A stretch of 64,000 nt of DNA from Elusimicrobiota bacterium (GCA_016218545.1 JACRDQ010000030.1:256172-320171); one strand, 5' to 3'; shown: positions 1,322 through 62,589, numbered from the stretch's first letter. The notes: generated by a model not told the origin, from the sequence alone. Program-made: numbers and translations.

Positions 1322-2798
1322 CGAAGACCGAGGCGCCTTCCGCGTCGTCGCGGAAGACCGGGGCTCCCAGGCTGGACTCAGCCCAGGCCCCGATGAGGGC
1401 TCCCATGTCCCTTGCCCCGGCCGGCACGAAGCCTCCGGGCAGGAAGGAGTGCTCCACGTGGATATGGGTGACTCCAGCCTGGCGCGAGGTCTCGACCCAT
1501 TCCCGCGGTCCGGAAGAGCCGAGCGGCGGGGGGAGGCACTGTCGTCCGGTCAGGAGCATCACCGTGTTGAACTTGAGGCTTTCGACGACCGCGTCCGGAG
1601 GGCTGTTGAGGCGGACCCACTCCATGGTCCGGGCCTGATAGGAGGCCGGCCTGGTCAGGGACGCTGACACCAGCCTTGCGTCCTGCCGGAGCGCGGCCAG
1701 GGCCAGGAGTGCCAGCGCGGCCCGGCCCAACCAGGCCTGTGCCGGCCGGTCCGAGGGGGAGAGGGACCCGATCGCGGAGGCCGCGAAGAGCCAGACCAAG
1801 GGCGCGAGGGGGATGACGTAGCGGGAGTCCTCGGGGCTCCAGGTCAAGTGCAGGACCAGGACCAGGACGGTGTAGGCGGCCATGGCGAAGACCAGGGGCG
1901 TCTCCTCCCTGGAGCTCGTCATGAGGCGCCCTGCGCCCCACGCAGCGCAGCTCGCCAGGGCCAGACCCGCGGCCAAGACCAGCCAGCCCGGAGCCTGGGC
2001 GCCGGCCAGCCCGTCTCCGAAGAAGGAGGCGATGACGGCCAGGGCGTGGCTTCCCTGCGCCCCGGGTTCGCCGAGCAGGGCGACTTGGCTGCGCCAGTTC
2101 ACGGCGTATCCGGTCGAGACCCCGGCCGCGAGCTTGTTGCGCAGGAGCCAGAGGCCAAGGGGCGCCAGGCTCGAGAGGAGGAACGCGCCCTGGCGCCTGC
2201 GGCCGGGAGTGGCGAGGGCTCCTGCGGCCAGGGCCAGGCACAGGAGGCCGCCGTGCGGACGGATGAGACCCGCCCAAGCAGCCGCGGCCCACGCGCAGCC
2301 GGTCAGGGCCCAGGAGCCGGACCGGGTCCCCAGGTCCAGGGCCATGAGCGTCAAGGCCAGGTAGGGGATGTCCGGGAGCACGAGCCCGGAGTGGCGCACG
2401 AAGACGGGAGAGAGCGCGGTCAGGCCGGCCGCTGCCAGGGGCCACGGGGCCGGCAGGAGCCTCCAGCCCAGCCGCCAGGTGAAGAAGACGGCCAGGACCA
2501 TGGCGGCCAGCGGCACGCCGCGCAGGAGGCCCCACCGCGGCTCCGCCAGCCAGACCGGGCCCAGGAGCAGCGCCGCGTAGCCTGGCAGCGGGTCGCTGAC
2601 GGGCACGCCCTGGGCGTCGGGAAGGGCGAAGCCTCCGTGCCGCAGGGAGCGGGCGAGCAGGACCTGGACCGAGTCGTCCTCGATGAGCCCCACGGGGTTG
2701 CCTTTCGAGGCCGCGAGATGAAGGCAGAGCAGCGCGGCTGCGGCCGGCAGGATGAGGCGCGTTCTCACGGCCCGGGCTCCTCTGCGGAAAGCGCGCAC
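1287..2798 (-). CDS. Polytopic membrane protein of the GT-C glycosyltransferase type (family 39/83-like, ArnT/PMT_2-like)
   Basis: A 503-aa hydrophobic protein. Its N-terminus LIEDDSVQVLLARSLRHGGFAL..DPLPGYAALLLGPVWL is paralogous to the next gene upstream. Confidence 0.5.
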   Translation of the reverse strand: MRAFRRGARAVRTRLILPAAAALLCLHLAASKGNPVGLIEDDSVQVLLARSLRHGGFALPDAQGVPVSDPLPGYAALLLGPVWLAEPRWGLLRGVPLAAMVLAVFFTWRLGWRLLPAPWPLAAAGLTALSPVFVRHSGLVLPDIPYLALTLMALDLGTRSGSWALTGCAWAAAAWAGLIRPHGGLLCLALAAGALATPGRRRQGAFLLSSLAPLGLWLLRNKLAAGVSTGYAVNWRSQVALLGEPGAQGSHALAVIASFFGDGLAGAQAPGWLVLAAGLALASCAAWGAGRLMTSSREETPLVFAMAAYTVLVLVLHLTWSPEDSRYVIPLAPLVWLFAASAIGSLSPSDRPAQAWLGRAALALLALAALRQDARLVSASLTRPASYQARTMEWVRLNSPPDAVVESLKFNTVMLLTGRQCLPPPLGSSGPREWVETSRQAGVTHIHVEHSFLPGGFVPAGARDMGALIGAWAESSLGAPVFRDDAEGASVFAIPSAGAPRTR

Positions 2799-4393: not shown

Positions 4394-4443
4394 AGGGCGC
4401 CGGTGAAGGGGCCTGGAACGGGTGCATTATATTAATTAGGCCG

Positions 4444-6405: not shown

Positions 6406-6602
6406 GGTCCCTCCCGGTCCTCCGCGCCCCAAGACTACCATGATTGGCCGACGGAATCAACCTCGCGCGGGGCCCTGCCCGGGGCGGTTAGGTAGAACTA
6501 CGGAGTGCCCCTTGGGGCTGCCACGGATTGTGTCCCGGCCGGGGGTTGGGGTACCATGAAGTACCGCCCGGCTCCTCGACACGGCCGGGCAGGAGGACCT
6601 CG

Positions 6603-7295
6603 ATGGACTTCTCAAAGCCGCTCTCCATGACCCCTGAAGGACTCGGTCCGCACGCGCACGCCGCCCTCATCCACCTCTCCCGCCAGGAACAGCTCTCCTT
6701 CGTCGTGCCCTATCACCGCTCAGGGCTCGAGCGCGGGGAGAAGTGCGTCTGTGTGGCCGACGCCGACGGCGTCGAGGCCCTGTGGGCCGCCTTGAGGGCC
6801 GCCGGGGTCGACGCGGCCGGGGCCCTGGCCAAGGGGCAGCTCGCGAGCCTCTCCCCCGAGGAGGTCTACCTGAAGGACGGCCGCTTCGACCCTGCCCCGA
6901 CCTTGGCCGTGTTTCGGGGAGCCATCGAGGAGGCTCGCCGGCAGGGGTTCTCCGGGCTGCGGGTTTCCGCGGACATGACCTGGTCCTGCGGCGGGGCCGC
7001 GGCCATGCCGCTCCTGGCGGACTACGAGGCCGAGGTCAACCGCCTCTTCGAGGACCACCCCTTCGGCGCGGTCTGCCAATACGAATACGGCCGCTTCTCC
7101 GCGGACGCCCTGACCAGGGTCGTCTATACCCACCCCTTGGTGATCTTCGGCGGCAGGGTGCACTGGAACCCCTTCTTCATCCCGCCGAACGAGTACCTCA
7201 GGCCGCGGGACCCCGACGCGGAGCTCACGCGCGTGCTGAGCATGCTCTGCCGGGCGTCCTCCATGCGGGAGCGGCCCGTCCCCGTCGTCGTCTGA
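6603..7295 (+). CDS. MEDS-domain sensory protein (methanogen/methylotroph DcmR sensory domain)
   Basis: Translation starts at MDFSKP after a strong AGGAGG SD. Motifs HAALIHLSRQEQLSFVVPY..GEKCVCVAD..LRVSADMTW..YEYGRF match my memory of the MEDS family. Confidence 0.5.
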   Translation: MDFSKPLSMTPEGLGPHAHAALIHLSRQEQLSFVVPYHRSGLERGEKCVCVADADGVEALWAALRAAGVDAAGALAKGQLASLSPEEVYLKDGRFDPAPTLAVFRGAIEEARRQGFSGLRVSADMTWSCGGAAAMPLLADYEAEVNRLFEDHPFGAVCQYEYGRFSADALTRVVYTHPLVIFGGRVHWNPFFIPPNEYLRPRDPDAELTRVLSMLCRASSMRERPVPVVV

Positions 7296-7314
7296 CGGTC
7301 GGGCCCCCCCGCCG

Positions 7315-8064
7315 ATGAGTTATAATGGAAGGGTGACCCCTGGCAAGGCCGACACGAGCGGGCAGGAGGGGATCCGCTATAAGATCCTGACGGTGGATGA
7401 CGACGCCGAGTGCCTCTCCATGCTGCGGGTCTGCCTGAGCCGAGCCGGCCACACGGTGCTGGCCGCGCGCTCCGCCCGCGAAGCCCTGCTGGCCGCTGTG
7501 GACTCCGGTCCGGACCTCGTCATCTCGGACGTCCAGATGGCGGGCGATGACGGCTTCGAGCTCTCGCGCCGCCTCAAGGCCGGCCCCGCGACCGCGCGCA
7601 TCCCCATCATCCTCCTGTCCGGCGCCAGCAAGGATGTCCGGGACCAGCTCGAGGGCTTCGGCCTCGGGGTCGACGACTATCTGATCAAGCCTTTCGAGCC
7701 GGCCCTCCTCCTGGCCAAGGTCCACGCGGTCCTGCGGCGCTACGCCGTCGCCGAGGAGCTGCGGGACGTGGTGAAGTCCAGGGGCGTGGAGCTCGACGTG
7801 CAGGCGCGCACCGTGTCCTGCTCGGGGTCCCCGGTCGCGCTCAGCCGCAAGGAGTTCGACCTGCTCATCACCCTCATCCGCAAGCGGGGCCATGTCTTGA
7901 GCCCGTCGTTCCTCCTGGAATCGGTCTGGAGCCAGGACCTCGCGGAATACAACGATCCGCGCACGGTGAAGGTCCACATCTCGTCCCTGCGAAAGAAGCT
8001 GCCGCCCGCCGTGGCGCGGCGCATCATGACCGTGCCCGGCTCCGGCTACCGCTTCGACGCCTAG
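7315..8064 (+). CDS. OmpR/PhoB-family response regulator (receiver plus winged-helix domains)
   Basis: The receiver has ILTVDDD ... DLVISDVQMAGDDGFEL ... DDYLIKPF. The C-terminal winged helix has LSRKEFDLLITLI..RTVKVHISSLRKKL. Confidence 0.85.
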   Translation: MSYNGRVTPGKADTSGQEGIRYKILTVDDDAECLSMLRVCLSRAGHTVLAARSAREALLAAVDSGPDLVISDVQMAGDDGFELSRRLKAGPATARIPIILLSGASKDVRDQLEGFGLGVDDYLIKPFEPALLLAKVHAVLRRYAVAEELRDVVKSRGVELDVQARTVSCSGSPVALSRKEFDLLITLIRKRGHVLSPSFLLESVWSQDLAEYNDPRTVKVHISSLRKKLPPAVARRIMTVPGSGYRFDA

Positions 8065-8170
8065 GCGCCGGCGGGCTTCTGCCGTCGACCGCGTCCCTGG
8101 CTTGACCTTTTTTTTACCGCCATCCGGCACACTATGATTGGGGACGGCGGACGTCGCGCCGTACGATGCC

Positions 8171-10285
8171 ATGGAAGAAGACAAGAACAAGAAACTGGCC
8201 TTACGCATCGCCTCGTTGTTGGACGACGTCTCGGAAACGCCGGAGCCCCGGGGCTCCGGCGCTCCGAGCCAGCCGGTCATCTCGCTGAGACCCGCCGTGG
8301 TGGAGGCCCTCCCCGCGGGCGCGGATCTCGGCTCTCCCGCGGTCCAGGCCCCTTCCGAGGTCCTGGCCTCGCCCGAGGTCGGGTCCGCTGTGATGGATAT
8401 CCTGCCCATCTGGGCTGACCCCGACTTTCCTGCGGAGCAGGCCGTGCCCGCGCCGGCCGAAGGGGCCGCGGCCAGCGCGGCCCCCAAGAGGTCCGTGCTG
8501 GTGGTCGACGATGACCGGGACTACCGGCGGATGGTCCGGGCCCTGCTTTCCGGCAACGGCTATGACGTCTACGAGGCCGAGGATGGGCGCCGGGCTCTGC
8601 AGTTGATCGCGCTGCACCGTCCGGACCTGGTGCTCGTGGACTTCAACATGCCGCGGATGAACGGCTACGAGATGATCCAGGAGGTGCGGAGCCGGTTCGA
8701 GACCCGCGCCATTCCGATCATCATGTTCACCGGCGCTTCCAACCGGAGCCACCTGCGGAGCCTGGGCATGGCTATCTCGGATTTCCTGGAGAAGCCGGTG
8801 TCCAATGTCAGGCTGCTGGAGAGCATCTCCAGCGTGCTCGGCGCGGAGCCGTCTCCCGAGCTCATGGGAGCGGAGTCCGCCCCGTCTCCCCGGATCGTTG
8901 CGCCGCCGAAGGCTCCGGAGACGACGCCGTCCCCGAAAGTCGTCGCAGCCGAAACCATGGCTGAGAAGCCTCCGGCGGCGCCGGCGGAGCCCGCTCCGAC
9001 GGGCCTGCCGCCGGAGCCGCTCGAAGAAGGGGACGAGGACGGGACCGAGCTCCTGCAGATCGAGGAGGAGAAGAAGGAGGAGGAGAGGCAGGAGGTCATC
9101 AGCCTCGAGCACCAGGCCAATGAGTCCCCGGTCATCAGCCAGGTGAACCGCATCCTCGTCAAGGCCGTGGGGATGCGCGCCTCCGACATCCACATCGAGC
9201 CTCAGGAGAAGCACATCACGGTCCGCGTGAGGGTCGACGGCACTCTCAAGCTCCTGTGCACCCTGCCCCTCTCCATCCATCCCCGCCTGAGCGCCCGCAT
9301 CAAGATCATGTCCAGCCTGGTCATCACGGAGAGACGCCTTCCCCAGGACGGGCAGTTCAAGACCCAGATCAGGGGCAGCCGGGTCGAGTTCCGGGTGAGC
9401 ACGCTCCCGTGCCTGCACGGCGAGAAGATCGTCATGCGCATCTTGGGCACCAGCAAGCTCAACGCCGATCTGGCCCAGATGAGCCTCCGTCCCCGCGACC
9501 TGGGCTGCGTGGAGAGGGCGCTCAGGACCCCTCACGGCCTCATCCTCGTGACCGGCCCCACCGGGAGCGGCAAGACCACCACCCTCTACACCATGATCAG
9601 CGTCCTCAACAAGCCCGAAGTCAACATCCTGACCGCCGAGGACCCCGTGGAGTACGAGGTGCCGGACATCTCGCAGGTCAAGGTCCTGCCGTCCATCGGC
9701 CTGACCTTCGAGTCCGCTCTGCGGGCCTTCCTGAGGCAGGACCCGGACATCATGCTCATCGGCGAGATCCGCGACCTGGAGACGGCCAACATCGCGGTCA
9801 AGGCCTCTATCACCGGACACCTGGTCTTCTCCACCCTGCATACCAACGGCGCCGTCGCCACCGTGACGAGGCTCGTCCACATGGGGGTGGCGCCCTATCT
9901 CGTCGCGGCCAGCGTCAAGCTCGTGGCGGCCCAGCGCCTGGTCCGGGACCTCTGCCCGTCCTGCAAGGTCCCCGGCGAGGTCTCCGACGACGAGAAGAAG
10001 TTCCTCGCGGAGGAGGAGGTCGCCAGGCTCCGATCCGTCTGGCGGAGCGCGGGGTGTCCCGCCTGCCATCAGACGGGGTACTCGGGGCGCTCGGCCCTCT
10101 TCGAGATCATGCCCCTGGACTCGGCGGCCATGCGCCAGCTCATCTGCGCCGGAGACAAGGCGGAGGAGCTCAACCGTCTGGCCCTTGCGGAGGGCATGAC
10201 CACCCTGCGGCAAGCCGCCTTGGAGGCGGTGGCGCGGGGCACGACCTCGTTGAGCGAGGCGCTCAAGGTCATGCTGGGGGGATGA
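8171..10285 (+). CDS. GspE/PilB-family secretion ATPase with an N-terminal disordered segment and a receiver (REC) domain
   Basis: The REC domain is VLVVDDDRDYRRMV..DLVLVDFNMPRMNGYE..EKP. The ATPase core has SDIHIEP, Walker A GPTGSGKTTT, DIMLIGEIRD, and the tetracysteine CPSC..CPAC. The start could instead be the TTG at 8138; the ATG at 8171 is used here. Confidence 0.8.
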   Translation: MEEDKNKKLALRIASLLDDVSETPEPRGSGAPSQPVISLRPAVVEALPAGADLGSPAVQAPSEVLASPEVGSAVMDILPIWADPDFPAEQAVPAPAEGAAASAAPKRSVLVVDDDRDYRRMVRALLSGNGYDVYEAEDGRRALQLIALHRPDLVLVDFNMPRMNGYEMIQEVRSRFETRAIPIIMFTGASNRSHLRSLGMAISDFLEKPVSNVRLLESISSVLGAEPSPELMGAESAPSPRIVAPPKAPETTPSPKVVAAETMAEKPPAAPAEPAPTGLPPEPLEEGDEDGTELLQIEEEKKEEERQEVISLEHQANESPVISQVNRILVKAVGMRASDIHIEPQEKHITVRVRVDGTLKLLCTLPLSIHPRLSARIKIMSSLVITERRLPQDGQFKTQIRGSRVEFRVSTLPCLHGEKIVMRILGTSKLNADLAQMSLRPRDLGCVERALRTPHGLILVTGPTGSGKTTTLYTMISVLNKPEVNILTAEDPVEYEVPDISQVKVLPSIGLTFESALRAFLRQDPDIMLIGEIRDLETANIAVKASITGHLVFSTLHTNGAVATVTRLVHMGVAPYLVAASVKLVAAQRLVRDLCPSCKVPGEVSDDEKKFLAEEEVARLRSVWRSAGCPACHQTGYSGRSALFEIMPLDSAAMRQLICAGDKAEELNRLALAEGMTTLRQAALEAVARGTTSLSEALKVMLGG

Positions 10286-10286
10286 T

Positions 10287-11048
10287 ATGCCCGGCATGCC
10301 GTTGGTCGAGGCCTTTCGGGGCGACCTCACGACCCAGGAGCTCTGTCGTCGGGGACGCCTCAAGCTCAGGCGTTTCGATCCTCCCGGCTACGCGGAGGCC
10401 GTCGCCTTCTTCTCGGACGCGCGGGAAGGCGATCCGGAGTGCGCGGTCTCCGTGGCCGCCCTGGCCGAAGCCTACTCGCACTGGGGTTTCGCGAGGAAGC
10501 TCATAGGGCAGGAGAGCGAGAGCTATTTCCTCCTGGCTTTCGAGAACGCCTGCTTGGCGCTGGAGATGGCCCCTGAACTCGCCGAGACGCACCGGGCCAT
10601 GGCCGTCTGCCTGAGGCACCGGCCGCGCCGCGGCCCCGAGCAGGGACTCGCCGAGGCGTCGGCAGCGGTGAGGATCAACCCTTACGACGCCATGTCCTGC
10701 TACGAGCTCTGGCGGGCGATGGGCCATGACCCCGAGTCACCCATGATCCACAAGGCCCTGGCGCTCGATCCCGCGCTGCTGACCGTCAACAATGACCTGG
10801 CGGTGTCGCTCATGGAAGCGGAGCGCGCCCAAGAGGCCGGCTTCCATCTGCGCCAGTGCCTGCGGGTCAATTACGAGAACGCGGTGGCCCGATACAACAT
10901 GGTCCTGCTCCTCGCCTGCCGCGGCAAGACCGAGCAGGCGCAGACCCTGCTCGAGGCCTGGCTGAAGGGGCCCGATTTCGAGCCGCTGGTGCGCAGCGGG
11001 AACGCGTCGCTGGCTGACCCGCGCTCCACGGGGGGGATCCTCTTATGA
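10287..11048 (+). CDS. TPR-like repeat protein
   Basis: A helical repeat protein whose start is coupled to the GspE stop and whose end overlaps the kinase start. Confidence 0.55.
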   Translation: MPGMPLVEAFRGDLTTQELCRRGRLKLRRFDPPGYAEAVAFFSDAREGDPECAVSVAALAEAYSHWGFARKLIGQESESYFLLAFENACLALEMAPELAETHRAMAVCLRHRPRRGPEQGLAEASAAVRINPYDAMSCYELWRAMGHDPESPMIHKALALDPALLTVNNDLAVSLMEAERAQEAGFHLRQCLRVNYENAVARYNMVLLLACRGKTEQAQTLLEAWLKGPDFEPLVRSGNASLADPRSTGGILL

Positions 11049-13216
11049 ATCGCTTCCAATCTCCGAGCCAAGATGCCGGGGGCAAGACGCCCGATCAACT
11101 CGGCGCAGAGTTCGTCCTCGAGTTGGGAAGGGCCGTCAAGGTCGTGTCCCTGTACTACGCGAACCACCCGACCGCCCTTCAGACCCTCCGGCAAGTCCAC
11201 GCCATCCTGGAGCGGCTGTTGACCGGCCTTTCCGCGGGGCGCGTCACCTTCTCCCTGGCGGCCGGACGCTGGCTCAGGGATGGTTCCCCCCTGCCTGCCC
11301 CGGGTCCGGGCGCGGACTCCCTGCTCGGCGTGTTCGAGACCCACTCCATCGAGAGCCTCACCTTCCTGGGAGGCATCAGGCCCTTCGAGCTGGTCGCTCT
11401 GGCCGAGGTCGCGGCTTCCGTCCCGACGCGTCCGGGCCGCGCCGCGCTCCAGGAGTTCCTCCAGCAGAGAGGAGTGACCCACATCAAAGCGGACATCGAG
11501 CACTATTCCAAGGAGTCGGCTCCGCAGGGCTCGGACGGTTCCCTGGCGTCCGGCTTGCCGGCCGCCTCCTCGTCCGCTGCCAAGCCCCCTGTCGCGCCTT
11601 CCGTTCTCAGGCCTGCCGCGCCTGCGCCCGCTGGCAAGCCTTCAGCGCCTGCGTCCGCTGCCAAGCCCTCCGCGCCTGCGCCCGCTGGCAAGCCTTCGTC
11701 GCCTGCGCCCGCTGCCAAGCCCTCCGCGCCTGCGCCCGCTGGCAAGCCTTCGTCGCCTGCGCCCGCTGCCAAGCCCTCCGCGCCTGCGTCTGCTGCCAAG
11801 CTTGCCGCGCCGTCGCCTTCGGTCGCTCACAGCGTCCCGGCGCAGCCTCCCAAGCCGGCTCTCCCGCCCGTAGAGGTCCGTGCCTCCGCGGCCGGGATGT
11901 GGGGCCCGCCGTCGAGCCCTGCTCCCGACTCTCACGGGGACAGGCTTGGCGTCAGTTTCGGCAGCGTGCTTCGCAAGCTCGTGGAGACCGCGGTGCAGGA
12001 TCCCGACGAGAGGTCCCACATCTACGAGGACGTGGTGGCCATGGTCAAGGAGACCTTGGACCGCCACGTCGACCAGGCGACGCAGGCGCTCTCGGAGGAG
12101 AAGGCGCGCATCGTCAGGCAGGCCGCCAGGACCGAACGGGTGCTCACCACGGTGGCGGACGGAAAGTTCACCGTGGATAAAGAGGGAAGGGTCCTCATGA
12201 TGAACGCCAGCGCCGAGATGATCACGGGAAAGCGTCTGGCCGACCTCGCGGGCAAGCACATCACCGAGGGCGTCAAGGAGGGGGAGCACATGGTCGCGCT
12301 CGCCGAGGACCTGGCGTCCCCGGCCGTGGACGGAGCAGGGGTCACGGTCGTGGCCGATGAGGCGGTGGGCGGCGCCATGCGCCGCTCCCTGGCCCTGGTC
12401 CGAGACGACGCGGGCCGCGTGGTCGGCACGTACGCCTCCCTCCCCGACGCCGCCAAGTTCAAGGAAGCCCAGCGCCTGCAGGAGGAGTTCCTCTCCCGGG
12501 TGACGCACGACCTCCAGTCCCCGCTGGCCGCCATCTGCAGCGGACTCGAGCTCCTCGCGGACAAGGTCAGCTCCGTGGGCGGTCCCGAGACGGCCCAGTA
12601 CATCGACATCTGCATGCGCAACAGCCGTCACCTCTCGGGGATGATCCGCGAGATCCTCGATTTCTCGAAGCTCGACTCGGGCAAGATGACGGTGCACCCG
12701 GCCCCTGTCTCGGCCTCAAGCCTCCTCAAGGAGGCGGTGGAGAGCCTCCAGCCCTGGGCCAAGACCAGGAAGCTCCGCCTGGAAGCGCGTTCTGCCCACG
12801 CGGATTTCTCGGTGCTGGCGGACCAGCCGCGCGTCGTCCAGGTGCTGACCAACCTCATCTCGAACGCGGTCAAGTCCACAAAGGAAGGGGGCTCGATCAC
12901 CGTGGCGGCGGTCCCGGCAGCGGAGGACGGGCAGGGGATCTTCGCGGTGAAGGACACGGGGAGCGGGATCTCCCCTGAGGACCTCGGCCGCATCTTCGAG
13001 AAGTTCGTCCAGGTCGGGGACGGCCGCAGGGACGGGGTGGGACTCGGGCTTTCCATCGTCCAGGAGTTCGTCCGATTGCACGGCGGCGCGGTCTGGGCCG
13101 AGAGCGAGCCCGGCAAGGGTTCGGTGTTCTACTTCACGCTCCCCTTGTCGCAAGCCGGAGTCATCGGCCCCGCGGCGCAGGAGGTCCTGCCGCCTTCGGG
13201 GCGGCCCCGGCACTGA
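11045..13216 (+). CDS. Sensor histidine kinase with an N-terminal domain, a Pro/Ala-rich repeat linker, a PAS-like region, HisKA and HATPase_c
   Basis: H-box SRVTHDLQSPLAAI, N-box NLISNAVKST, and G-boxes DTGSGI and GVGLGLSIV. It shares an operon with the regulator, the REC-GspE fusion and the TPR protein. Confidence 0.8.
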   Translation: MNRFQSPSQDAGGKTPDQLGAEFVLELGRAVKVVSLYYANHPTALQTLRQVHAILERLLTGLSAGRVTFSLAAGRWLRDGSPLPAPGPGADSLLGVFETHSIESLTFLGGIRPFELVALAEVAASVPTRPGRAALQEFLQQRGVTHIKADIEHYSKESAPQGSDGSLASGLPAASSSAAKPPVAPSVLRPAAPAPAGKPSAPASAAKPSAPAPAGKPSSPAPAAKPSAPAPAGKPSSPAPAAKPSAPASAAKLAAPSPSVAHSVPAQPPKPALPPVEVRASAAGMWGPPSSPAPDSHGDRLGVSFGSVLRKLVETAVQDPDERSHIYEDVVAMVKETLDRHVDQATQALSEEKARIVRQAARTERVLTTVADGKFTVDKEGRVLMMNASAEMITGKRLADLAGKHITEGVKEGEHMVALAEDLASPAVDGAGVTVVADEAVGGAMRRSLALVRDDAGRVVGTYASLPDAAKFKEAQRLQEEFLSRVTHDLQSPLAAICSGLELLADKVSSVGGPETAQYIDICMRNSRHLSGMIREILDFSKLDSGKMTVHPAPVSASSLLKEAVESLQPWAKTRKLRLEARSAHADFSVLADQPRVVQVLTNLISNAVKSTKEGGSITVAAVPAAEDGQGIFAVKDTGSGISPEDLGRIFEKFVQVGDGRRDGVGLGLSIVQEFVRLHGGAVWAESEPGKGSVFYFTLPLSQAGVIGPAAQEVLPPSGRPRH
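11630..11819 (+). repeat. Seven tandem 27-nt units, including a perfect 54-bp duplication, encoding (A/G)KPS(A/S)PAPA inside the kinase gene
   Basis: Segments 11658-11711 and 11712-11765 are identical in sequence. Flanking units are degenerate copies. Confidence 0.7.
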
Positions 13217-15177: not shown

Positions 15178-15710
15178 CCCCTCAGGTAGAACCTCAGGTT
15201 CTCGACGAGGTCCACGGCCTTGCCGAGCTGGTACTGGCAGGACTCGAGCTCCTTGGCCAGCGAGTCCTCGGGGAGGCTCGCGCGCGCCTCCTCGGCCAGG
15301 AGTTTCAGCGAGGCCCCGGCGTTGACGAGGAGGCTCTTGAGCTCCCGGGTCATGACCGAGGCCGTCTGGTTGGCCGACTCCTCGCGCCGGGTCTGGTCGA
15401 GCGCGGTGTCGAAGGCCGTCTTCTGGGCCTGGGCCGCGGTCTCCTCGACCTCGGAGACCTTCATCCTGGAGGCGATGAGCGCGGCGTGCTCGCGCTCGAG
15501 GTCCCGGCGGACCTCGACGAGCTGGCTCTCGCAGCGCGCGACCTTGGCCCGGAGCTTGCCGATGAGCGCCTCGCGCTGGCGGATCGGGTCGAGGAGCTTG
15601 CGGATGCGCTCGACCGGGCCGCGGAGCGACTGGGGCAGGCGGCTGGAGAGCTCCTTGAGCGCGGCGTCGGCCCTCTCGAGCGCGGCCTGGCTGAACGCCA
15701 TGTTCATATT
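15174..15710 (-). CDS. Coiled-coil hypothetical protein
   Basis: MNMAFSQAALERADAALKEL... is predicted helical throughout. Its stop overlaps the substrate-binding protein start (ATGA). Confidence 0.45.
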   Translation of the reverse strand, partial: NMNMAFSQAALERADAALKELSSRLPQSLRGPVERIRKLLDPIRQREALIGKLRAKVARCESQLVEVRRDLEREHAALIASRMKVSEVEETAAQAQKTAFDTALDQTRREESANQTASVMTRELKSLLVNAGASLKLLAEEARASLPEDSLAKELESCQYQLGKAVDLVENLRFYLRG

Positions 15711-15839
15711 ATGGCAAAAATACCCGGGAAAATGGGGAAAAGCCCGCCGGGTCGGGAAAAACATGATTTCCGTCATTTGAATTAAACGTCCCAAACGGAT
15801 AAAATATGTTTTGCCCTTGAGTTCTTCCGGGGCCTTCCA

Positions 15840-16805
15840 GTGCCGACCCGAACGCAGACGACGACCAGCCTCGAGGCTTCCCTGGGACGGGTGCGCGCAG
15901 GCATGCAAGCCCGCGCCAAGCGCATCTCCGGCCGCGTGGGCTCCGCCCTGGCCGAGCACGTGTCCCGGCCGGGCAAGATGCTCCGGGCGAGGTTCGCGGT
16001 CCAGGTCGGGGCCGCCCTCGGGGTGGCGCCGGGAAAGACCGAGACGGTCGCCCGCGCCATGGAGCTGGCGCACAACGCCTCTCTCCTCCACGACGATTGC
16101 GTCGACGACGCCTCCCTGCGTCGGGGCCTGCCCACGCCCAACAGCGTCTACGGCTCGACCGTGGCGCTCCTCCTGGGGGACATCGCCTTCACCCAGTCGC
16201 TCGAGGAGGCGCTCGAACTCGGCCCCAAGGCCGTGGAGCGCCTCGTGAGCGCGGCGCGCGAGATGGCCATCGGCGAGCTCCAGGAGGAGTTCCTGCGCGG
16301 CTCCGTGGACGTGACCCTCGAGTCCTACATGGGGGTCGCGGCGCGCAAGACCGGGGCCCTCTTCGAGTGGGGCGGCTTGACGCTCTCGGACCTAAGCCCC
16401 CTCGAGCACGCGGCCGCCGACCCCGCCAGGCTGGGCTCGGCGCTCGGCATCCTCCTGCAGATGGTCGACGACATCCACGACTACACCCTGACGGACGCCG
16501 TGGCCGGCAAGGAGCGGGCCAAGGACGCCAAGATCGGGCGCGTGACCCTTCCCGGGGTCTTTGCGCTCGCGGACGCCTCCCGCCGGGGGCGCTTCCTCGA
16601 GTTGTGGGCCGCGCTGCGCCGGGACCCGCGCGCCGCCTCGGACCTGGCGCGCTTCCTCGACGAGAGCGGGTCGCTCGACGAGGCCCGCGCCGAGTGCCGC
16701 AAGGTGGTCGGGACCATCCTCGAGCTGACCCGGCGCCTGCCGGTCCGGGGAGAGGTCGACGAGGTGGCCGAGTTCGTCTCGGCCATGGCCGAGAGGGAAT
16801 TCTGA
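15840..16805 (+). CDS. Trans-polyprenyl diphosphate synthase (IspB/hepta- or octaprenyl-PP synthase family), or possibly a ComQ-like isoprenyl transferase
   Basis: GTG start. First Asp-rich motif LLHDDCVDDASLRRG, second motif MVDDIHDY, and GKERAKDAKIGRVTLP. It is the first gene of the radical-SAM operon. Confidence 0.85.
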   Translation: MPTRTQTTTSLEASLGRVRAGMQARAKRISGRVGSALAEHVSRPGKMLRARFAVQVGAALGVAPGKTETVARAMELAHNASLLHDDCVDDASLRRGLPTPNSVYGSTVALLLGDIAFTQSLEEALELGPKAVERLVSAAREMAIGELQEEFLRGSVDVTLESYMGVAARKTGALFEWGGLTLSDLSPLEHAAADPARLGSALGILLQMVDDIHDYTLTDAVAGKERAKDAKIGRVTLPGVFALADASRRGRFLELWAALRRDPRAASDLARFLDESGSLDEARAECRKVVGTILELTRRLPVRGEVDEVAEFVSAMAEREF

Positions 16806-17002
16806 TGGGCTACGCCGACCTCATCCGGCGGGCCTGGCGGACCGGGCGCTTCGCCGCCTCGGTCCGGTCGTCCGGGAAGAAGGGCGCCGCGGGCGTCCGT
16901 CCCGGGGAGAGCCGCGGCTCCATCCGCGGCGAGATGGAAGAGATCGTCCGCCGCGAGTCCGCCGACGCGCTCGGCTTCCTCGCGCCGCGCGGGGAGGGAA
17001 TC

Positions 17003-17254
17003 ATGAAGCTCGCACCGTTCGTGAAATTCCGTGAAGAGAAGTTCGGCGCGGTCCTGTTCGAGACCCGTTCCGAGAAGGTGTTCACCCTCAATCCGACGGC
17101 CGCGGACGTGGTGCGGGAGCTCCTCGCCGGCGCCTCGGAGGGCGAGATCGGAGAGCGCCTCAAGGGCCGCTACAGCGACCCCTCGGGCAGGCTCGCCGAC
17201 GAGGCCAAGGCCCTCGTGCGCCAGCTCCGCGACAAGGGGCTCATCGCGGACTAG
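17003..17254 (+). CDS. PqqD-family peptide chaperone (RiPP recognition element)
   Basis: MKLAPFVKFREEKFGAVLFETRSEKVFTLNPTAADVVRELLAGASEGEIGERL..LRDKGLI has the PqqD/MftB pattern. A strong SD (GGGGAGGG) sits 5 nt upstream of the ATG at 17003. The in-frame extension back to 16805 is possible but less likely. Confidence 0.7.
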   Translation: MKLAPFVKFREEKFGAVLFETRSEKVFTLNPTAADVVRELLAGASEGEIGERLKGRYSDPSGRLADEAKALVRQLRDKGLIAD

Positions 17255-17255
17255 C

Positions 17256-18254
17256 ATGGCTTCGAGGAAGGACGCGGTCAAGGCCGGAGGCCGGGCGTCC
17301 CGGGCGCCCTTGGAAGAGGCGTTGGCGCCCGGGATGCGGGCGCCGCTCTACATCGGCTGGCAGCTGACCAATGCCTGCGACCTGGCGTGCGTCCACTGCA
17401 TCGAGGAGTCCGGGCCGGGCCGCGCCTTCAAGGACGAGCTGACCCGGGAGCAGGCCTTCCGTATCCTCGAGCAGATCAAGACCGAGCAGGTGCCCTACGT
17501 CGCCTTCTCCGGGGGCGAGCCCTTCCTCCACCCGCACTTCCTGGAACTGGCCGCGTTCCTCGGAGACGCCGGGGTGTCGCTCAAGGTCGAGACCAACGGC
17601 CGCCACCTCACCGAGGCGGCCGCCTCGGCGCTGCGGGACCACGGAGTCCGGGCCGTGCAGGTCAGCCTCGACGGCGCCACCCCCGAGGCCTACCGCAAGG
17701 TGCGGCCCTCCGGCGACCACGCCCGGGTCCTGGCAGGCATCCGCCTCCTGCGCTCCAGGGGCGTGGAGGTGGAGGTCAACTTCGTCCCGACGCGGCACAA
17801 CGTCCATGAGATCGGAGCCGCCGTGGACCTGGCCTTCAGCGAGGGGGTCTCCGGCTTCTACACGGGCAGGCTCATCCTGGCCGGCCACGCCGCCAAGGCG
17901 CGGGACCTGGCCCCGACCCAGGAGCAGTACGACGCCTTCTTCGCGTGCCTCAAGGCCAAGGCCCAGGAGTACAAGGGCCGCATGACCGTGCGCTATCACG
18001 AGCTGGGCATCGCGCAGGAGGTCCGCTACCGCATGGCCAACCCCGCGGCCCTCTTCGTCATCCTGCCCGACGGCAGGGTGAAGCTCCTCAACGCCCTGCC
18101 GTTCGTGTGCGGCGACCTGCGCGAGCAGAGCCTCACCGAGGTCTGGAAGGCCTTCCTCGCGGGCTGGAAGTCGCCGCGGGTGGCCGACTTCGTCGGCCGC
18201 CTGGAGGCCGACCCCGGGCTCCTGCAAGGACTGCACCGATGGATCCCTTTGTGA
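17256..18254 (+). CDS. Radical-SAM enzyme, PqqE/MftC-like core without the full SPASM cysteine set (paralog 1)
   Basis: WQLTNACDLACVHC is a CxxxCxxC motif. FSGGEPFLHPHF is the SAM-binding motif. The C-terminus ILPDGRVKLLNALPFVCGDL looks like a vestigial half-SPASM with a single Cys. Confidence 0.85.
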   Translation: MASRKDAVKAGGRASRAPLEEALAPGMRAPLYIGWQLTNACDLACVHCIEESGPGRAFKDELTREQAFRILEQIKTEQVPYVAFSGGEPFLHPHFLELAAFLGDAGVSLKVETNGRHLTEAAASALRDHGVRAVQVSLDGATPEAYRKVRPSGDHARVLAGIRLLRSRGVEVEVNFVPTRHNVHEIGAAVDLAFSEGVSGFYTGRLILAGHAAKARDLAPTQEQYDAFFACLKAKAQEYKGRMTVRYHELGIAQEVRYRMANPAALFVILPDGRVKLLNALPFVCGDLREQSLTEVWKAFLAGWKSPRVADFVGRLEADPGLLQGLHRWIPL

Positions 18255-19198
18255 CCGAGTCCGGCGTGGAGACCGACGGCCGCGCCGCTCCGGCCCGCGG
18301 CGGCGGGAGCGGGCGGCCGAATCTGGCCCTGCGGATGGCGTCTGCGGTGCGCTACCGCTTCTTCCTGTACGCGGGACTCCTCCCGTACTTCCTCGGCGCG
18401 GCCTGGGCCCTGCGCATGGAGGGAGCCTTCGCGCCCGGCCGCTTCTGGCTGGGCCTGCTGGGCATCGGCCTGTCCGTCGTGGGTGTTGAGTCCTTCAACG
18501 AGTACTTCGACGCGCGCATGGGCACGGACCGCGTCTTCAACCCTTCCGACGACGAGTACATCCCCGCCTGGATGCTCTGGCTGGGGGTCGCGGCGTTCGC
18601 GGCCGCGGCGTGCGTGGGCATGGCCCTGGCCCATGCCGGAGGCTGGCCCATCCTCCTCTACATGGGGCTGGGCGGCATGGCCGCGGCCTTCTACGTGGGC
18701 CCGCCTTTCCGCTGGGCCTACCTGGGCCTCGGCGAGACCTCGATCGCCTTGTCCTACGGGCCCTGGATGACCCTGGGCAGCATCCACCTGCACACGGGCG
18801 CTTTCTCCTGGCGCGGCCTGGCGGCCGCGCTCGTGCCCGGCTTGCTGGTGGCGTCGCTCGCCGTGGTCAACGAGATCCCGGATTTCCACCAGGACCGGCT
18901 CGTGGGCAAGCGCAACCTCGTGGTGCGGCTGGGCCGCAGGAACGGGGTCGCCCTGTACCTCGCCCTGGCCGGGGCGGGCTTGGCCGCGTGCTTCGCAGGC
19001 GCGGCCGCGGGCTGGTTCCCGGTCGCGTGCGGCCTGGCCGGGGCCCTGGGCCTGCCGTGCTGGTTCTCGAGCGCTCGGACCGCGGTCAAGGCGTGGGACA
19101 CGCCGCGGCTTTTCGTGCCCGCGGTGCGGGACATCGTGCAGTGCTATCTCGTGACCGTGAGCGCCTTCATCATGGCGCTCGCCGTGAGGCTGCCGTGA
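18239..19198 (+). CDS. UbiA-family membrane prenyltransferase (MenA/UbiA-like)
   Basis: A polytopic protein. NEYFDARMGTD is an NxxxDxxxD-like Asp-rich motif, and a second motif is VNEIPDFHQD. It overlaps the upstream radical-SAM gene by 16 nt and the downstream one by 4 nt. Confidence 0.75.
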   Translation: MDPFVTESGVETDGRAAPARGGGSGRPNLALRMASAVRYRFFLYAGLLPYFLGAAWALRMEGAFAPGRFWLGLLGIGLSVVGVESFNEYFDARMGTDRVFNPSDDEYIPAWMLWLGVAAFAAAACVGMALAHAGGWPILLYMGLGGMAAAFYVGPPFRWAYLGLGETSIALSYGPWMTLGSIHLHTGAFSWRGLAAALVPGLLVASLAVVNEIPDFHQDRLVGKRNLVVRLGRRNGVALYLALAGAGLAACFAGAAAGWFPVACGLAGALGLPCWFSSARTAVKAWDTPRLFVPAVRDIVQCYLVTVSAFIMALAVRLP

Positions 19199-20109
19199 GG
19201 ATCGCGTCCTTCGACGTTCCCCTGGCCGCTGCCTGGCGCCTGACCGACCGGTGCGACCTCTCCTGCCGGCACTGCCTCAACGCTTCCGGGCCCAAGGCTG
19301 ACACGGCCGCCGAGCTCTCCCGGCCCGAGGCTCTCAAGCTGGCCCGGAGCATCGGCTCAGCCCAGGTCCCCTACGTCATCCTCTGCGGGGGCGAGCCCAT
19401 GCTGAGCCCCGACTTCTGGCAGGCGGCCGAGACCCTGGGCGAGGCAGGCGCGTGGCTCAAGGTGGAGACGCACGGCCAGAACCTCGGGCGCACCCAGGCG
19501 GAGCGCCTGGCCAAGCTCCCCATCCGCTCGGTCCAGGTCTCTCTCGACGGGGTCACCCAGCAGGCTTACGAGTCCCTGCGGCCAGGGGCCTCCCTGGCCA
19601 AGACCTTGGAAGCTTGCCGCGAGGTGCGGCGTCAAGGCATGCCCCTCGAGATCTCCTTCGTCCCGGTCCAGGGCAACATCCACGAGGCTCCGGCGGTCAT
19701 CGACCTGGCCCTGGACCTGGGCGCCTTCCGGTTCAACACCGGGACCCTCATCAAGCGCGGCCGCGCCGCAGCCGCTTGGAAGAAGCTCCTTCCTGATGCC
19801 GAGTCCATGGCAGGCTTGCTCGCGGTCCTCACCCGTCGCGAAGCCACCCTGGCCGGGAGGCTCGAGCTCTGCTTCAGGCCTTTCAATTTCGAAGACCAGG
19901 TCCGCGCCGAACGCGCGGAGCCCTCAGGCACGCTCACGATCCTGCCTGACGGCAAGGTCCCTGTCTCGGCCTCCTCGGACGTCGTCTGCGCCGACCTTCG
20001 GACGCAGACGGTCAGGGAGGCCTGGCGCGCTTACTTGGCGGCGCACGGCAAGGGGCCACGATCGGAAAGATGGGTCGGCTCGTGTCTTGAGCCGGCTACC
20101 CGGTCCTAG
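19195..20109 (+). CDS. Radical-SAM enzyme, paralog 2
   Basis: The GTG start overlaps the UbiA stop (GTGA), with GAGG 5 nt upstream. Motifs WRLTDRCDLSCRHC, CGGEPMLSPDF, KVETHG, VQVSLDG, LPDGKVP..VVCADL. Confidence 0.75.
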   Translation: MRIASFDVPLAAAWRLTDRCDLSCRHCLNASGPKADTAAELSRPEALKLARSIGSAQVPYVILCGGEPMLSPDFWQAAETLGEAGAWLKVETHGQNLGRTQAERLAKLPIRSVQVSLDGVTQQAYESLRPGASLAKTLEACREVRRQGMPLEISFVPVQGNIHEAPAVIDLALDLGAFRFNTGTLIKRGRAAAAWKKLLPDAESMAGLLAVLTRREATLAGRLELCFRPFNFEDQVRAERAEPSGTLTILPDGKVPVSASSDVVCADLRTQTVREAWRAYLAAHGKGPRSERWVGSCLEPATRS

Positions 20110-20129
20110 GCCGGGATTTAGGAGACAGC

Positions 20130-20255
20130 ATGAGAGACAAGAAGAACGTGACGGATGGAAAGGCGAAGGCCGACAAGAAGCCCGTGTGGCAGACCCCTTC
20201 TCTCGAAGAGGTCACCGAGCGTGTCATGGCCCAGCCGTACATCAGGTTCACGTGA
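20130..20255 (+). CDS. Candidate 41-aa RiPP precursor peptide
   Basis: MRDKKNVTDGKAKADKKPVWQTPSLEEVTERVMAQPYIRFT. GGAGA lies 5 nt upstream of the ATG. It is the only gap in an otherwise overlapping operon, and its TGA stop overlaps the GTG of the next radical-SAM gene. Confidence 0.5.
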   Translation: MRDKKNVTDGKAKADKKPVWQTPSLEEVTERVMAQPYIRFT

Positions 20256-21226
20256 CGCACCCGAGGGGGGCGGCGGTAGGAGACTACCGCGCCCCCCTCT
20301 TTGTCGCGTGGCAACTCACCAACCGCTGCCGCGGCCGCTGCCTGGCCTGCTGCGAGGAATCCGGTCCGGGCAAGGGAATCCGCCAAGGCGGGTCCTGGCA
20401 GGCTGAGCTCACCAAGCAGGAAGCCCTCCGCGTCAGCCGCGACATCGCGGCCTCCGGGGTCTCCTACGTGGCGTTCGGCGGGGGGGAACCCATGGAGGTG
20501 CCGCACTTCTGGGACATCCTCTCCATCCTCTCCAAGGGCGGGGTCCGCATCAAGATCGAGACCAACGGCGGGACCATCGGCCGCTCCCAGGCCAAGCGCC
20601 TCTCCGCCTTGGGCGTGTCCTCCATCCAGATCAGCCTCGACGGCCCCACGGCCCGCGAGCACGAGGCCTTGAGGCCCGGCTCGAGCTTCAACAAAGCGGT
20701 CCGGGCGGTCCGCTGTCTGGCTGAGGAAGGGCTCGGGCCTGAGGTCGTGTTCATCCCCATGAAGAGGAACGTGGGCCAGGCCGTCAAGGTCTACCGATTG
20801 GCGGCCAGTCTCGGAGCCAGGGTGCTTGCGACCGGCCCTCTCATGCGCCTGGGACGCGCCGGAGCAGCATGGAAGGAACTCGCCCCGTCGGCCGGGCGAT
20901 GGCGGACCGCGGTCCGGGCGCTCAAGGCCGAGGCCGCCCGTGCCAAGGCAGGGCCCAAGCTCTCCATCTATCCCTGGGGCATCCAGAGGGAGATCGAGAC
21001 CAGGCTCGAGCATCCCCAGGCCATGGTCCTCGTGGTGCCTGACGGCAAGGTCAAGCTCCTCAATGCCCTCCCTTTTGCTCCAGGCGACCTGCGGCGACAC
21101 TCCCTGGCCCAGGCCTGGACGCGCTGCCTCGGAGCTTGGCGCGACCCCAAGGTGCGGGCTTTCTGCCGCAAGGCCGTGAAGGACCCCGGGCTCCTGGCGC
21201 ACGCCAACGAATGCTGGCCCGCCTAA
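20252..21226 (+). CDS. Radical-SAM enzyme, paralog 3, closest to paralog 1
   Basis: WQLTNRCRGRCLACC is a CxxxCxxC motif. Also FGGGEPMEVPHF, KIETNG, IQISLDG, VVPDGKVKLLNALPFAPGDLRRHSLAQAW. The start is inferred as the GTG at 20252; no alternative in-frame start follows the downstream GGAGAC. Confidence 0.7.
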   Translation: MTHPRGAAVGDYRAPLFVAWQLTNRCRGRCLACCEESGPGKGIRQGGSWQAELTKQEALRVSRDIAASGVSYVAFGGGEPMEVPHFWDILSILSKGGVRIKIETNGGTIGRSQAKRLSALGVSSIQISLDGPTAREHEALRPGSSFNKAVRAVRCLAEEGLGPEVVFIPMKRNVGQAVKVYRLAASLGARVLATGPLMRLGRAGAAWKELAPSAGRWRTAVRALKAEAARAKAGPKLSIYPWGIQREIETRLEHPQAMVLVVPDGKVKLLNALPFAPGDLRRHSLAQAWTRCLGAWRDPKVRAFCRKAVKDPGLLAHANECWPA

Positions 21227-22286
21227 TCCAAGCAGGCTGAGAAGAGCGCGGGGAGCTCGCCGAGCCTGCCCGCCTCGGCGAGCTTGCCCAGGTCGAAGAG
21301 GATGAGGCCTCCGGAGCCTCCCTGCCAGGCGGCGTCGGCGGCGGCCCTGAGCTCGCCGGGTCCGAGGGGATGCTCCGCGTCTCCCACGAAGATGATGGGC
21401 CAGACCGGCTTGCCCGAATCGGCCTTGACGGCCATGGAGGCGTCCGTGATCCAGGACGCGGGCCTGCGCAGGAGCGCGTGGTACGCCATGGGCGAGACCA
21501 CGTCCGCTGCCCTGCCCATGAGGCGGTGGTCCTGGCCGAGGATCTCGAGGACGGCCCCGCGCTTCTCCGAGCGCTCCCAGGGCACGGCGAAGTAGCCCAC
21601 CAGGGCCGCGGGGTCGGCCGCGTGGACCGCGTCTGCGACCTCGCTGACGAGGCCCGCGATGCTCGCGGTCTTGAACGCGGTCCAGCGCTCCTTGTGGTCC
21701 GACAGGATCCAGCGCGCCTTCTCCCTGGCCGTGAGCTCCTCCGGGACCGCGACCCCGGTTTCCTTGCGGAACTCCCTCAGGCACACCGGGCAGAAGCAGG
21801 TCTGCTCGAGATGGGGCTCGGGGACCTCCCAGTGGCCGGGATAGCGGATGAAGTCGAGCCACACGCCGTCGACTTCCTGCTTGCGCACCAGGGACACGGC
21901 GCGCTTCTTGATGTCCAGCCTGAGCCAAGTCTGGTTGGGGCAGACGGCGGCGTACCACTTGACCTTGGCGAGGGGTTCGCCGACCTCGCTGACCGGCCTG
22001 CTCTCGGGCCGCGTCTTCCAATGACGCTCTCCCGCGAAGGCTGTGAGCTCCGCGAACACGCGGATGCCACGGCCGCGCAGGGCCTTGCGGAGGAGCGGGT
22101 CCTTGTAGCCGCCGAAGACCGCGTTCACGCCCCAGGAGGAGAGGGCCTCGGCGATCCGCTCCGGGGTCTTGCCCTTGAAGGCCGCGGACTTGGGGTCGAA
22201 GCCGTAGACCCCGCACACCGGTCCGGCGTCAGCGGCAAGAGCGGGCTGGACCGCGAGGATGAGGCCGGCGAGGATGAGGAGGAGCA

Positions 22287-62568: not shown

Positions 62569-62589
62569 CGGCTTGCGACATTGAACCGG

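Follow-up and report, generated by a model that had tools for sequence, protein, structure and literature searches.

We analysed 64,000 nucleotides (nt) of DNA from an Elusimicrobiota bacterium (GCA_016218545.1 JACRDQ010000030.1:256172-320171; hereafter the window) and found an operon, at positions 15840-21226, that appears to convert a PqqA-like ribosomal peptide of 41 amino acids (aa) into a polyprenyl-bearing membrane molecule, a reading to which, from sequence comparisons, we assign a probability of roughly 0.6. The operon encodes the peptide, a PqqD-family chaperone, three radical S-adenosylmethionine (radical-SAM) enzymes (rSAM1, rSAM2 and rSAM3), a UbiA-superfamily intramembrane prenyltransferase and an IspB-like polyprenyl diphosphate synthase. 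Across related loci the C-terminal core of the peptide is held constant, the genes for peptide, PqqD, radical-SAM enzyme and UbiA are linked in two architectures, and some clusters lie in or beside operons for quinone-dependent respiratory enzymes. A polyprenylation step in the pathway of a peptide-derived cofactor would be unprecedented. Open-access papers and bioRxiv yielded no description of a UbiA-type intramembrane prenyltransferase in a radical-SAM cluster for a ribosomally synthesized peptide with post-translational modifications (RiPP) that depends on a RiPP recognition element (RRE).

An invariant peptide core

Related loci were collected in two scans. A genome scan returned 208 species-level loci, the best 80 of which were analysed, and a metagenome scan with divergent precursors returned 217 loci, of which 80 were fetched. 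A reading frame for the peptide was found in 74 of the 80 genome loci. In the window, the gene has a ribosome-binding site, AGGAGA, 4 nt 5' of its ATG; it had been missed by the original prediction, a sequence-only description of this DNA, as had the true start of rSAM3 and an N-terminal extension of 65 aa to PqqD (Table 1).

Within a leader of variable length and sequence, W-E-T-P-x-[LMI]-E-[ED]-V is the conserved motif. In 73 loci the ten C-terminal residues, VMAQPYIRFT, show zero non-synonymous changes, while most of the ten positions are written with 2-4 synonymous codons (Val, Ala, Pro, Arg and Thr each with 3-4 different codons); the amino acid sequence is therefore under purifying selection. 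A profile search of 1.84 billion representative proteins gave 98 precursor clusters at 50% identity, nearly all of which carry [VI]MAQPYIRFT. Rare variants have Phe for Tyr, or read IVLRPYIRFT, VMARPYIRFT or ...IRFS, and a C-terminal P-[YF]-I-R-F-T is invariant in all UbiA-linked variants. Neither the peptide nor the PqqD extension matches any Pfam or NCBIfam model, even at E = 10. In one Elusimicrobiota-like metagenome-assembled genome (MAG), a 1.6-kilobase (kb) insertion (L009, 7971-9587) separates the precursor gene from rSAM3.

The layout of the peptide recalls that of PqqA from the pyrroloquinoline quinone (PQQ) pathway. Compared with seven annotated PqqA sequences (that of Klebsiella and six others; the Caballeronia PqqA is MKWETPSFTDMRFGFEITMYIATR), the peptide has in common the motif W-x-x-P-x-hydrophobic-x-acidic-hydrophobic, a Tyr 17 residues past the Trp and a C terminus 4 residues past the Tyr. 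It differs in that the Glu that PqqE cross-links to Tyr (Glu-x3-Tyr) is replaced by Met, and the invariant Gly of PqqA by Val; the layout is thus shared, whereas the core chemistry cannot be the same. Profile alignment of the two with hhalign placed the leader motifs in register (P = 6e-4, probability 28.6%, 11 columns). At that probability formal homology to PqqA is not proven, and our claim is restricted to the shared layout.

Two cluster architectures

The gene order of the window, [IspB]-PqqD-rSAM1-UbiA-rSAM2-peptide-rSAM3, which we call type B, occurs in essentially all 80 genome loci. The hosts of these best 80 loci are almost entirely Elusimicrobiota MAGs, together with about a dozen Beta- and Gammaproteobacteria; alphaproteobacterial examples were also found. 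Gene overlaps recur too: rSAM1 and ubiA share 16 nt in 32 of 75 loci, ubiA and rSAM2 share 4 nt in 55 of 75, and the peptide gene and rSAM3 share 4 nt in 36 of 67. With this constancy of order and these recurring overlaps, the arrangement is not due to chance.

A minimal form (type A) was detected by following divergent precursors. Its order, peptide-PqqD-rSAM(1-2)-UbiA, is present in 24 of the 26 metagenome loci with at least 3 kb of sequence downstream of the peptide; UbiA is followed by IspB in 6 of the 24 complete loci, and IspB is missing from 18. Type A loci range in G+C content from 31% to 69%, and their UbiA proteins are 37-50% identical to that of the window. The single radical-SAM enzyme of the minimal clusters is the orthologue of rSAM1, to which a tree places the type A enzymes in a sister position, and from these comparisons type B looks like a PqqD-rSAM1-UbiA core to which an rSAM2-peptide-rSAM3 unit has been added. 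In several loci (L101, L133, L143, L147, L148, L163 and L171) the minimal module is closely followed downstream by paired genes for a histidine kinase and a response regulator, which may regulate it.

This repeated and independent linkage of peptide, PqqD, radical-SAM enzyme and UbiA is our main evidence for prenylation within a peptide pathway. The clusters also have the features by which RRE-dependent radical-SAM RiPP systems are generically defined: a short precursor with a variable leader and a conserved core, a PqqD protein and a radical-SAM enzyme with a CxxxCxxC motif. The original prediction had proposed UbiA prenylation, supplied by a dedicated synthase, in a PqqD/radical-SAM peptide pathway, and the discovery of the precursor, the gene order conserved across phyla and the type A linkage all support it.

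The linkage also bears on whether two separate functions are co-located here, with the peptide, PqqD and radical-SAM enzymes making a non-lipidated RiPP or cofactor while an ordinary or variant isoprenoid quinone is produced by UbiA and IspB, its small aromatic acid being supplied from elsewhere. Some clusters (L087) have no adjoining UbiA and some peptides are orphans; UbiA is nearest MenA/UBIAD1 and pipelines annotate its relatives as 1,4-dihydroxy-2-naphthoate (DHNA) octaprenyltransferase; and the Phe-for-Tyr precursors would be irrelevant if the peptide were not the acceptor. However, UbiA is wedged between radical-SAM genes by conserved 16-nt and 4-nt overlaps, and it follows a radical-SAM gene in almost all of the minimal loci despite the divergence of its sequence and the wide range of G+C content, a persistence that is hard to explain without a shared pathway. 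Given, in addition, that the MenA cutoffs are failed and that no gene of an aromatic head-group pathway was found in the window or among the conserved neighbours, we consider co-location of two functions distinctly unlikely.

Layout of the operon

The window has a G+C content of about 70%, and every junction in the operon is an overlap or a gap of at most about 20 nt (Table 1). The ATG of pqqD overlaps the synthase stop codon by 1 nt; the stop codon of rSAM1 (18252-18254) ends a 16-nt overlap with ubiA (18239-18254); ubiA and rSAM2 overlap by 4 nt, with the rSAM2 start within GTGA; and the stop codon of the peptide gene overlaps the rSAM3 start by 4 nt, these two genes being translationally coupled. 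Because the genes overlap or nearly do so throughout, they form one tightly coupled operon. The UbiA-family gene had been predicted between radical-SAM genes with overlaps of 16 nt and 4 nt, in a PqqD/radical-SAM operon and downstream of a polyprenyl synthase, and the coordinates, the PF01040, PF00348 and PF05402 matches and the related loci bear this out. The promoter-like site is the one sigma-70-like match in 15500-21500, where 0.2 were expected from shuffled sequences; 35 nt separate it from the first start codon. Scanning the window for Rfam families and tRNAs returned no match.

Table 1 Features of the operon in the 64,000-nt window.
Feature	Position	Strand	Length (aa)	Evidence and remarks
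Promoter-like site	15777..15805	+		TTGAAT, 17 nt, TAAAAT; in AT-rich gap 5' of operon; consensus match only
IspB-like trans-polyprenyl diphosphate synthase	15840..16805	+	321	PF00348, 139 bits (cutoff 27); presumed supplier of prenyl donor
PqqD-family peptide chaperone (RRE)	16805..17254	+		PF05402, 43.9 bits (cutoff 23.4), residues 80-145; N-terminal extension of ~65 aa
Radical-SAM enzyme 1 (rSAM1)	17256..18254	+	332	PF04055, 92 bits
UbiA-superfamily intramembrane prenyltransferase, MenA/UBIAD1 branch	18239..19198	+	319	ATG to TGA; PF01040, 56.6 bits (cutoff 34.2)
Radical-SAM enzyme 2 (rSAM2)	19195..20109	+	304	GTG start; PF04055, 71 bits
Precursor peptide	20130..20255	+	41	MRDKKNVTDGKAKADKKPVWQTPSLEEVTERVMAQPYIRFT; between rSAM2 and rSAM3
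Radical-SAM enzyme 3 (rSAM3)	20252..21226	+	324	GTG start; PF04055, 76 bits

The prenyltransferase

The best NCBIfam match of UbiA is the MenA model NF004751, at 102.3 bits against a cutoff of 264; TIGR00751 gives 63.3 bits against 102.15, the remaining MenA models score lower, and every curated MenA cutoff is failed. Relatives keep the Asp-rich motifs NEYFDxxxGTD and NEIPDFHQDRLVGKRN (the second listed as NEIPDFHQD). The nearest PDB sequence and fold is human UBIAD1 (8djk), and an AlphaFold2 model (mean predicted local distance difference test score (pLDDT) 82) has UBIAD1, DGGGPS and ApUbiA as its nearest folds. BchG and ChlG models match weakly, and MenA models are ahead of them by more than 20 orders of magnitude in E-value. 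When UbiA and the IspB-like protein were compared by tblastn with annotated plasmid records, only weak generic matches were returned; the MenA sequences in these records are 28.7-41.2% identical to UbiA over 31-61% of the query (E 6e-5 to 8e-4). Public records name the UbiA relatives 'prenyltransferase', 'DHNA octaprenyltransferase' or MenA.

The protein thus resembles MenA and UBIAD1 in its fold, in both Asp-rich motifs, in its nearest models and structures, in its pairing with a polyprenyl diphosphate synthase and in that relatives of the operon adjoin quinone-using respiratory enzymes. It is unlike MenA in that it scores below all MenA equivalog cutoffs, has no linked men or mqn head-group genes and sits in a RiPP-type operon, in which the presumed acceptor is a modified peptide and not DHNA or menadiol.

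These differences make an ordinary menaquinone locus, with a housekeeping MenA and IspB and radical-SAM enzymes of the futalosine-pathway type, very improbable. MenA models are the best matches and databases name the relatives accordingly, and respiratory Elusimicrobia need a quinone (10.1101/765248). Against this stand the failed cutoffs, the weak matches to plasmid MenA, and radical-SAM enzymes that resemble the peptide maturases PqqE, MftC and SkfB and are accompanied by PqqD and a conserved precursor. Moreover, neither the 64-kb window nor the conserved neighbours of the related loci (80 from genomes, and 36 from metagenomes that span at least 5 kb) yielded a men, mqn or ubi gene. The scenario that the original prediction had set against itself, an ordinary menaquinone locus with Mqn enzymes nearby, was accordingly not encountered in the window or in the neighbourhoods of related loci.

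The synthase and PqqD

The IspB-like protein keeps both Asp-rich DDxxD motifs (LLHDDCVDD and MVDDIHD), and its best NCBIfam models include solanesyl, heptaprenyl and octaprenyl diphosphate synthases (96-104 bits against cutoffs of 383-456). Small residues ahead of the first DDxxD fit long products according to the chain-length rule, and the protein has Ala-Ser at the positions 5 and 4 before that motif; its product is probably long-chain. An adjoining IspB gene is present at 55 of the 80 genome loci, none of them proteobacterial.

PqqD passes the cutoff of the Pfam domain, whereas the PQQ-specific model TIGR03859 gives 19.4 bits against a cutoff of 46. Its N-terminal extension (16805-17002; MGYxxLIRxxWxTGxF...) is in frame with the PqqD domain and is kept in relatives: it is present in all 55 loci with an adjoining IspB (PqqD of 121-171 aa), and PqqD proteins without an adjoining IspB are mostly shorter, at 83-121 aa in most cases. 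The extension may dock the synthase or the membrane.

An alternative raised in the original prediction was that the IspB-like enzyme prenylates the peptide directly, in the manner of ComQ, and that UbiA has another role. ComQ shares homology with polyprenyl synthases, translation of the IspB gene is coupled to that of PqqD, and the N-terminal extension of PqqD co-occurs with IspB. But IspB does not adjoin any of the proteobacterial clusters, or 18 of the 24 complete minimal ones, and UbiA is nearly always kept; the protein also has both DDxxD motifs of chain-elongating synthases. We therefore disfavour direct prenylation by the synthase, which seems highly improbable.

The radical-SAM enzymes

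All three radical-SAM proteins keep CxxxCxxC, which in rSAM3 is extended to CxxxCxxCC. Conserved cysteines outside this motif number only 1-3 per enzyme: rSAM1 has one (C285, in PFVCGD), which could be a hydrogen-atom donor, and rSAM2 has three (C141, C226 and C265). The seven-cysteine SPASM set is absent from all three, including rSAM1, and no SPASM Pfam match was obtained; on the basis of these cysteine counts and the missing match, SPASM auxiliary clusters were rejected.

MftC is the top NCBIfam model for all three enzymes (bit scores of 99-128, below the cutoff of 265; the alignment covers only the N-terminal two thirds), and the PqqE model TIGR02109 gives 54-87 bits against 381. The best matches among solved structures are PqqE, SkfB and BlsE: the nearest PDB sequence is PqqE for rSAM2 (6c8v, E = 2e-17) and SkfB, BlsE and PqqE for rSAM3. 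An AlphaFold2 model of rSAM1 (pLDDT 86) is nearest the RiPP maturases SkfB, PqqE and SuiB.

AhbD and NirJ models score nearly as high as MftC, also below cutoff, and would be compatible with tetrapyrrole modification by AhbD- or NirJ-like radical-SAM enzymes and a prenyltransferase resembling heme O synthase or chlorophyll synthase; the weak BchG/ChlG matches of UbiA point the same way. Such a pathway is barely credible, given that PqqD and an invariant precursor have no role in tetrapyrrole tailoring, that MenA models far outscore chlorophyll synthase models for UbiA and that no conserved heme or chlorophyll genes lie nearby. A fourth radical-SAM gene in the window (34676-35857) encodes the heme chaperone HemW (TIGR00539, 245 bits, cutoff 205) and is unrelated to the operon; its presence means that the organism handles heme.

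Respiratory neighbourhoods

In 12 of the 31 loci with at least 2 kb of upstream context, the type A module lies in or beside an operon for the Na+-translocating NADH:quinone oxidoreductase (Na+-NQR). The order nqrABCDE-peptide-pqqD-rSAM-ubiA-nqrF occurs in L108, L133, L150 and L163 (in two of these IspB precedes nqrA), and the module follows nqrF, as nqrABCDEF-peptide-..., in L110, L137, L165 and L171. The contigs of nqr-linked minimal modules range from 31% to 61% G+C and encode an NqrA-like subunit with an RnfC-type iron-sulfur tail; in L108, NqrC and NqrD score above their curated cutoffs and NqrB, NqrE and NqrF just below. Elsewhere the minimal module directly follows nuoL-nuoM-nuoN of complex I (L104, 983-5819) or an electron-transfer flavoprotein (ETF):quinone oxidoreductase (ETF-QO) with a ubiquinone-binding domain (L158, 1561-3270).

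Type B clusters of gammaproteobacterial MAGs have other partners. An IspB-less cluster lies near genes for an MtrC-like multihaem cytochrome, MtrA and an MtrB/PioB porin in L055, L071, L077, L078, L080 and L060. MtrC-like, MtrA-like and MtrB genes are upstream in L055, L071 and L077, L080 has MtrC-like and MtrA-like genes, and L078 has an MtrC-like gene; FdhE and a molybdopterin formate-dehydrogenase-like enzyme are encoded downstream in L055 and L077. In Acetobacteraceae, a gene for a Coq10/RatA-like SRPBCC lipid-binding protein comes right after rSAM3 (L095, 14100-15379; L096, 14058-15337). A convergent class I methyltransferase gene comes next in both loci; the whole arrangement may be inherited synteny and not a functional link. 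What the NQR, Nuo, ETF-QO and Mtr/Fdh partners have in common is the membrane quinone pool.

No nqr genes were found near the seven-gene form, either in the window or in any of the Elusimicrobiota loci, and the type B clusters of Elusimicrobiota have no additional gene conserved with them. Among the neighbours of related loci, neither architecture has a conserved tailoring, protease or export gene. The flanks of the window hold housekeeping genes (ligA, purH, nusB, speA, era, valS, a Mur ligase gene, ksgA, efp and hemW).

One explanation of these neighbourhoods is that the peptide, once modified and polyprenylated, does not diffuse as a cofactor but serves respiratory complexes such as Na+-NQR or complex I as a small lipid-anchored subunit or an assembly factor, in which the tail docks the protein or holds a cofactor. 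It would account for the position of the minimal module between nqrE and nqrF, or right after nqrF or nuoN, where gaps are short and the orientation is shared; the invariance of the ten core residues would suit a protein-protein interface, and the leader may stay on, there being no conserved protease. We nevertheless think it unlikely. The seven-gene form has no nqr genes nearby, the partner enzyme changes with lineage, so that the quinone pool and not a subunit is shared, and the leader is highly variable in length and sequence, as are cleaved RiPP leaders.

To a secondary metabolite of the lipopeptide class, such as an antibiotic or a ComX-like signal, we give little credence. Prenylated peptide signals do exist (ComX/ComQ), the genes are of RiPP type and the minimal module is often followed by a histidine kinase gene paired with one for a response regulator. 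Antibiotic and pheromone cores are variable, though, whereas that of this peptide does not change from phylum to phylum; genes for export, immunity or leader proteolysis are not conserved with the cluster; and the operon sits amid core housekeeping genes in the window, while its relatives are embedded in respiratory operons.

Other features of the window are side observations. In a histidine kinase encoded upstream of the operon (11045-13216), the N-terminal domain is separated from the PAS/kinase part by a long tandem repeat rich in Pro, Ala and Lys (AAKPSAPAPAGKPSSPAP...). Positions 6492-10285 encode a MEDS-domain protein, an OmpR-type response regulator and a PilB/GspE-type ATPase with a fused N-terminal receiver domain, upstream of a tetratricopeptide-repeat protein; a second PilB-like ATPase, at 62585, runs past the end of the window. 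On the minus strand (1287-4426), two partly overlapping long open reading frames of about 550-640 aa, with high G+C at third codon positions, have no Pfam match.

Proposed pathway

We infer the following pathway, in its chemical steps, acceptor atom, chain length, any leader removal and redox role alike. PqqD would bind the leader motif W-x-x-P-x-hydrophobic-E-[ED]-V, and rSAM1, the ancestral enzyme, joined in type B by its two paralogues, would modify ...P-Y-I-R-F-T-COOH, the invariant core at the C terminus. On the model of PqqE, SkfB and SuiB, the likeliest chemistry is a carbon-carbon cross-link or an oxidative tailoring at or near the Tyr ring. The MenA/UBIAD1-like intramembrane enzyme would then alkylate the modified core, with a probably long polyprenyl diphosphate from the IspB-like synthase as donor; the active site of known UbiA relatives faces the cytoplasm. 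Alkylation by UbiA-superfamily enzymes can also take place on hydroxyl, carboxylate or phosphate groups, which makes the C-terminal Thr or the carboxylate other candidate acceptors. The lipid-anchored, peptide-derived product would work with quinone-dependent respiratory enzymes.

The product is most probably a redox carrier, a proposal that we hold less firmly than the conversion itself. Tentatively, and with less than even confidence, we suggest that it is a peptide-derived, polyprenylated electron carrier of the quinone type, and that in Elusimicrobiota and other uncultured lineages it supplies Na+-NQR, complex I, ETF-QO and Mtr/Fdh modules with all, or a low-potential part, of their membrane quinone pool.

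Several observations weigh against the pathway as we propose it. Phe-for-Tyr precursors occur and at least one (L088) keeps an adjoining UbiA, which argues against a simple attack on a phenol ring of the kind seen with 4-hydroxybenzoate; an obligatory role for the Tyr phenol as acceptor is weakened accordingly. Neither a protease nor a hydroxylase or oxidase accompanies the cluster as a conserved gene; enzymes encoded elsewhere would be needed for the oxygens of a true quinone and for removal of the leader. The similarity of the peptide to PqqA is statistically weak, with no match to a Pfam or NCBIfam PqqA model, and the radical-SAM enzymes lack the auxiliary-cluster cysteines of PqqE and MftC, such that their chemistry may differ from that of the models used. 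The immediate neighbours of the operon in the window are housekeeping and not respiratory genes. Orphan precursor genes (L113, L119 and L090) have no PqqD, radical-SAM or UbiA gene within about 6 kb; that of L090 (37% G+C) adjoins a diphthamide-synthase gene, which hints at an archaeal host. Lastly, the chemistry of the product is wholly inferred.

Relation to known pathways and implications

The closest counterparts are cofactor pathways. As in PQQ biosynthesis, there is a chaperone with a PqqD domain, the radical-SAM enzymes are nearest PqqE in sequence and fold, and the core is invariant, as expected of a cofactor. Unlike in the PQQ pathway, PqqB, PqqC and PqqF are absent (PqqB and PqqC were sought in the operon, the window and the conserved neighbours), all curated PQQ models score below cutoff, and the system has 1-3 radical-SAM paralogues without auxiliary-cluster cysteines, a membrane prenyltransferase and a polyprenyl diphosphate synthase. 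Mycofactocin is similar in being a redox cofactor derived from a peptide, with C-terminal residues tailored by a radical-SAM enzyme and a chaperone of the PqqD type, and MftC is the top model for the enzymes here. It differs in that its peptide ends in GVY and not IRFT, in that the MftB model gives 23.2 against a cutoff of 33, and in that the clusters described here have no MftD, MftE, MftF or glycosylation and have a prenylation step instead.

In ComX/ComQ and cyanobactin prenylation, too, a ribosomal peptide gains an isoprenoid group. Those systems use soluble ComQ or ABBA-fold enzymes and C5-C15 donors, and make secreted signals or toxins with variable cores; here the enzyme is an intramembrane UbiA, the donor synthase is of a long-chain-like type and the core is invariant. 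Judged from sequence, the pathway is most like those of PQQ and mycofactocin up to the radical-SAM reaction, with a MenA/UBIAD1-like step afterwards. It is a member of none of these families, because equivalog cutoffs are failed, the residue cross-linked in PqqA is absent, and PqqB, PqqC, MftD, MftE and MftF are missing. None of the components is claimed by a curated family model.

A survey of 26,264 genomes found many lineages without a recognizable quinone pathway, and its authors suggest that further quinones are to be found (PMC13386864). Groundwater Elusimicrobia lineages have complexes I, II and IV (Meheust et al., preprint, 10.1101/765248); the text and supplements of that study that we examined do not list the quinone genes of Elusimicrobia, and that quinone survey, of 2026, and the 2014 futalosine paper give no usable quinone data for these lineages. 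Where pipelines annotate UbiA as a DHNA octaprenyltransferase or prenyltransferase, menaquinone pathways can be called in error.

The operon connects two fields not previously in contact, that of peptide-derived cofactors such as PQQ and mycofactocin and that of lipid head-group prenylation by UbiA-type enzymes, in a widespread system. Isoprenoid quinones are the hub of respiration. If the suggestion of a quinone-type carrier is correct, the product would be the first lipidated RiPP cofactor, and respiratory quinone head groups would have a third origin, in ribosomal peptides, besides polyketides and aromatics derived from chorismate. Were it an electron carrier, the reconstruction of respiration would change for groundwater Elusimicrobiota and similar uncultured bacteria.

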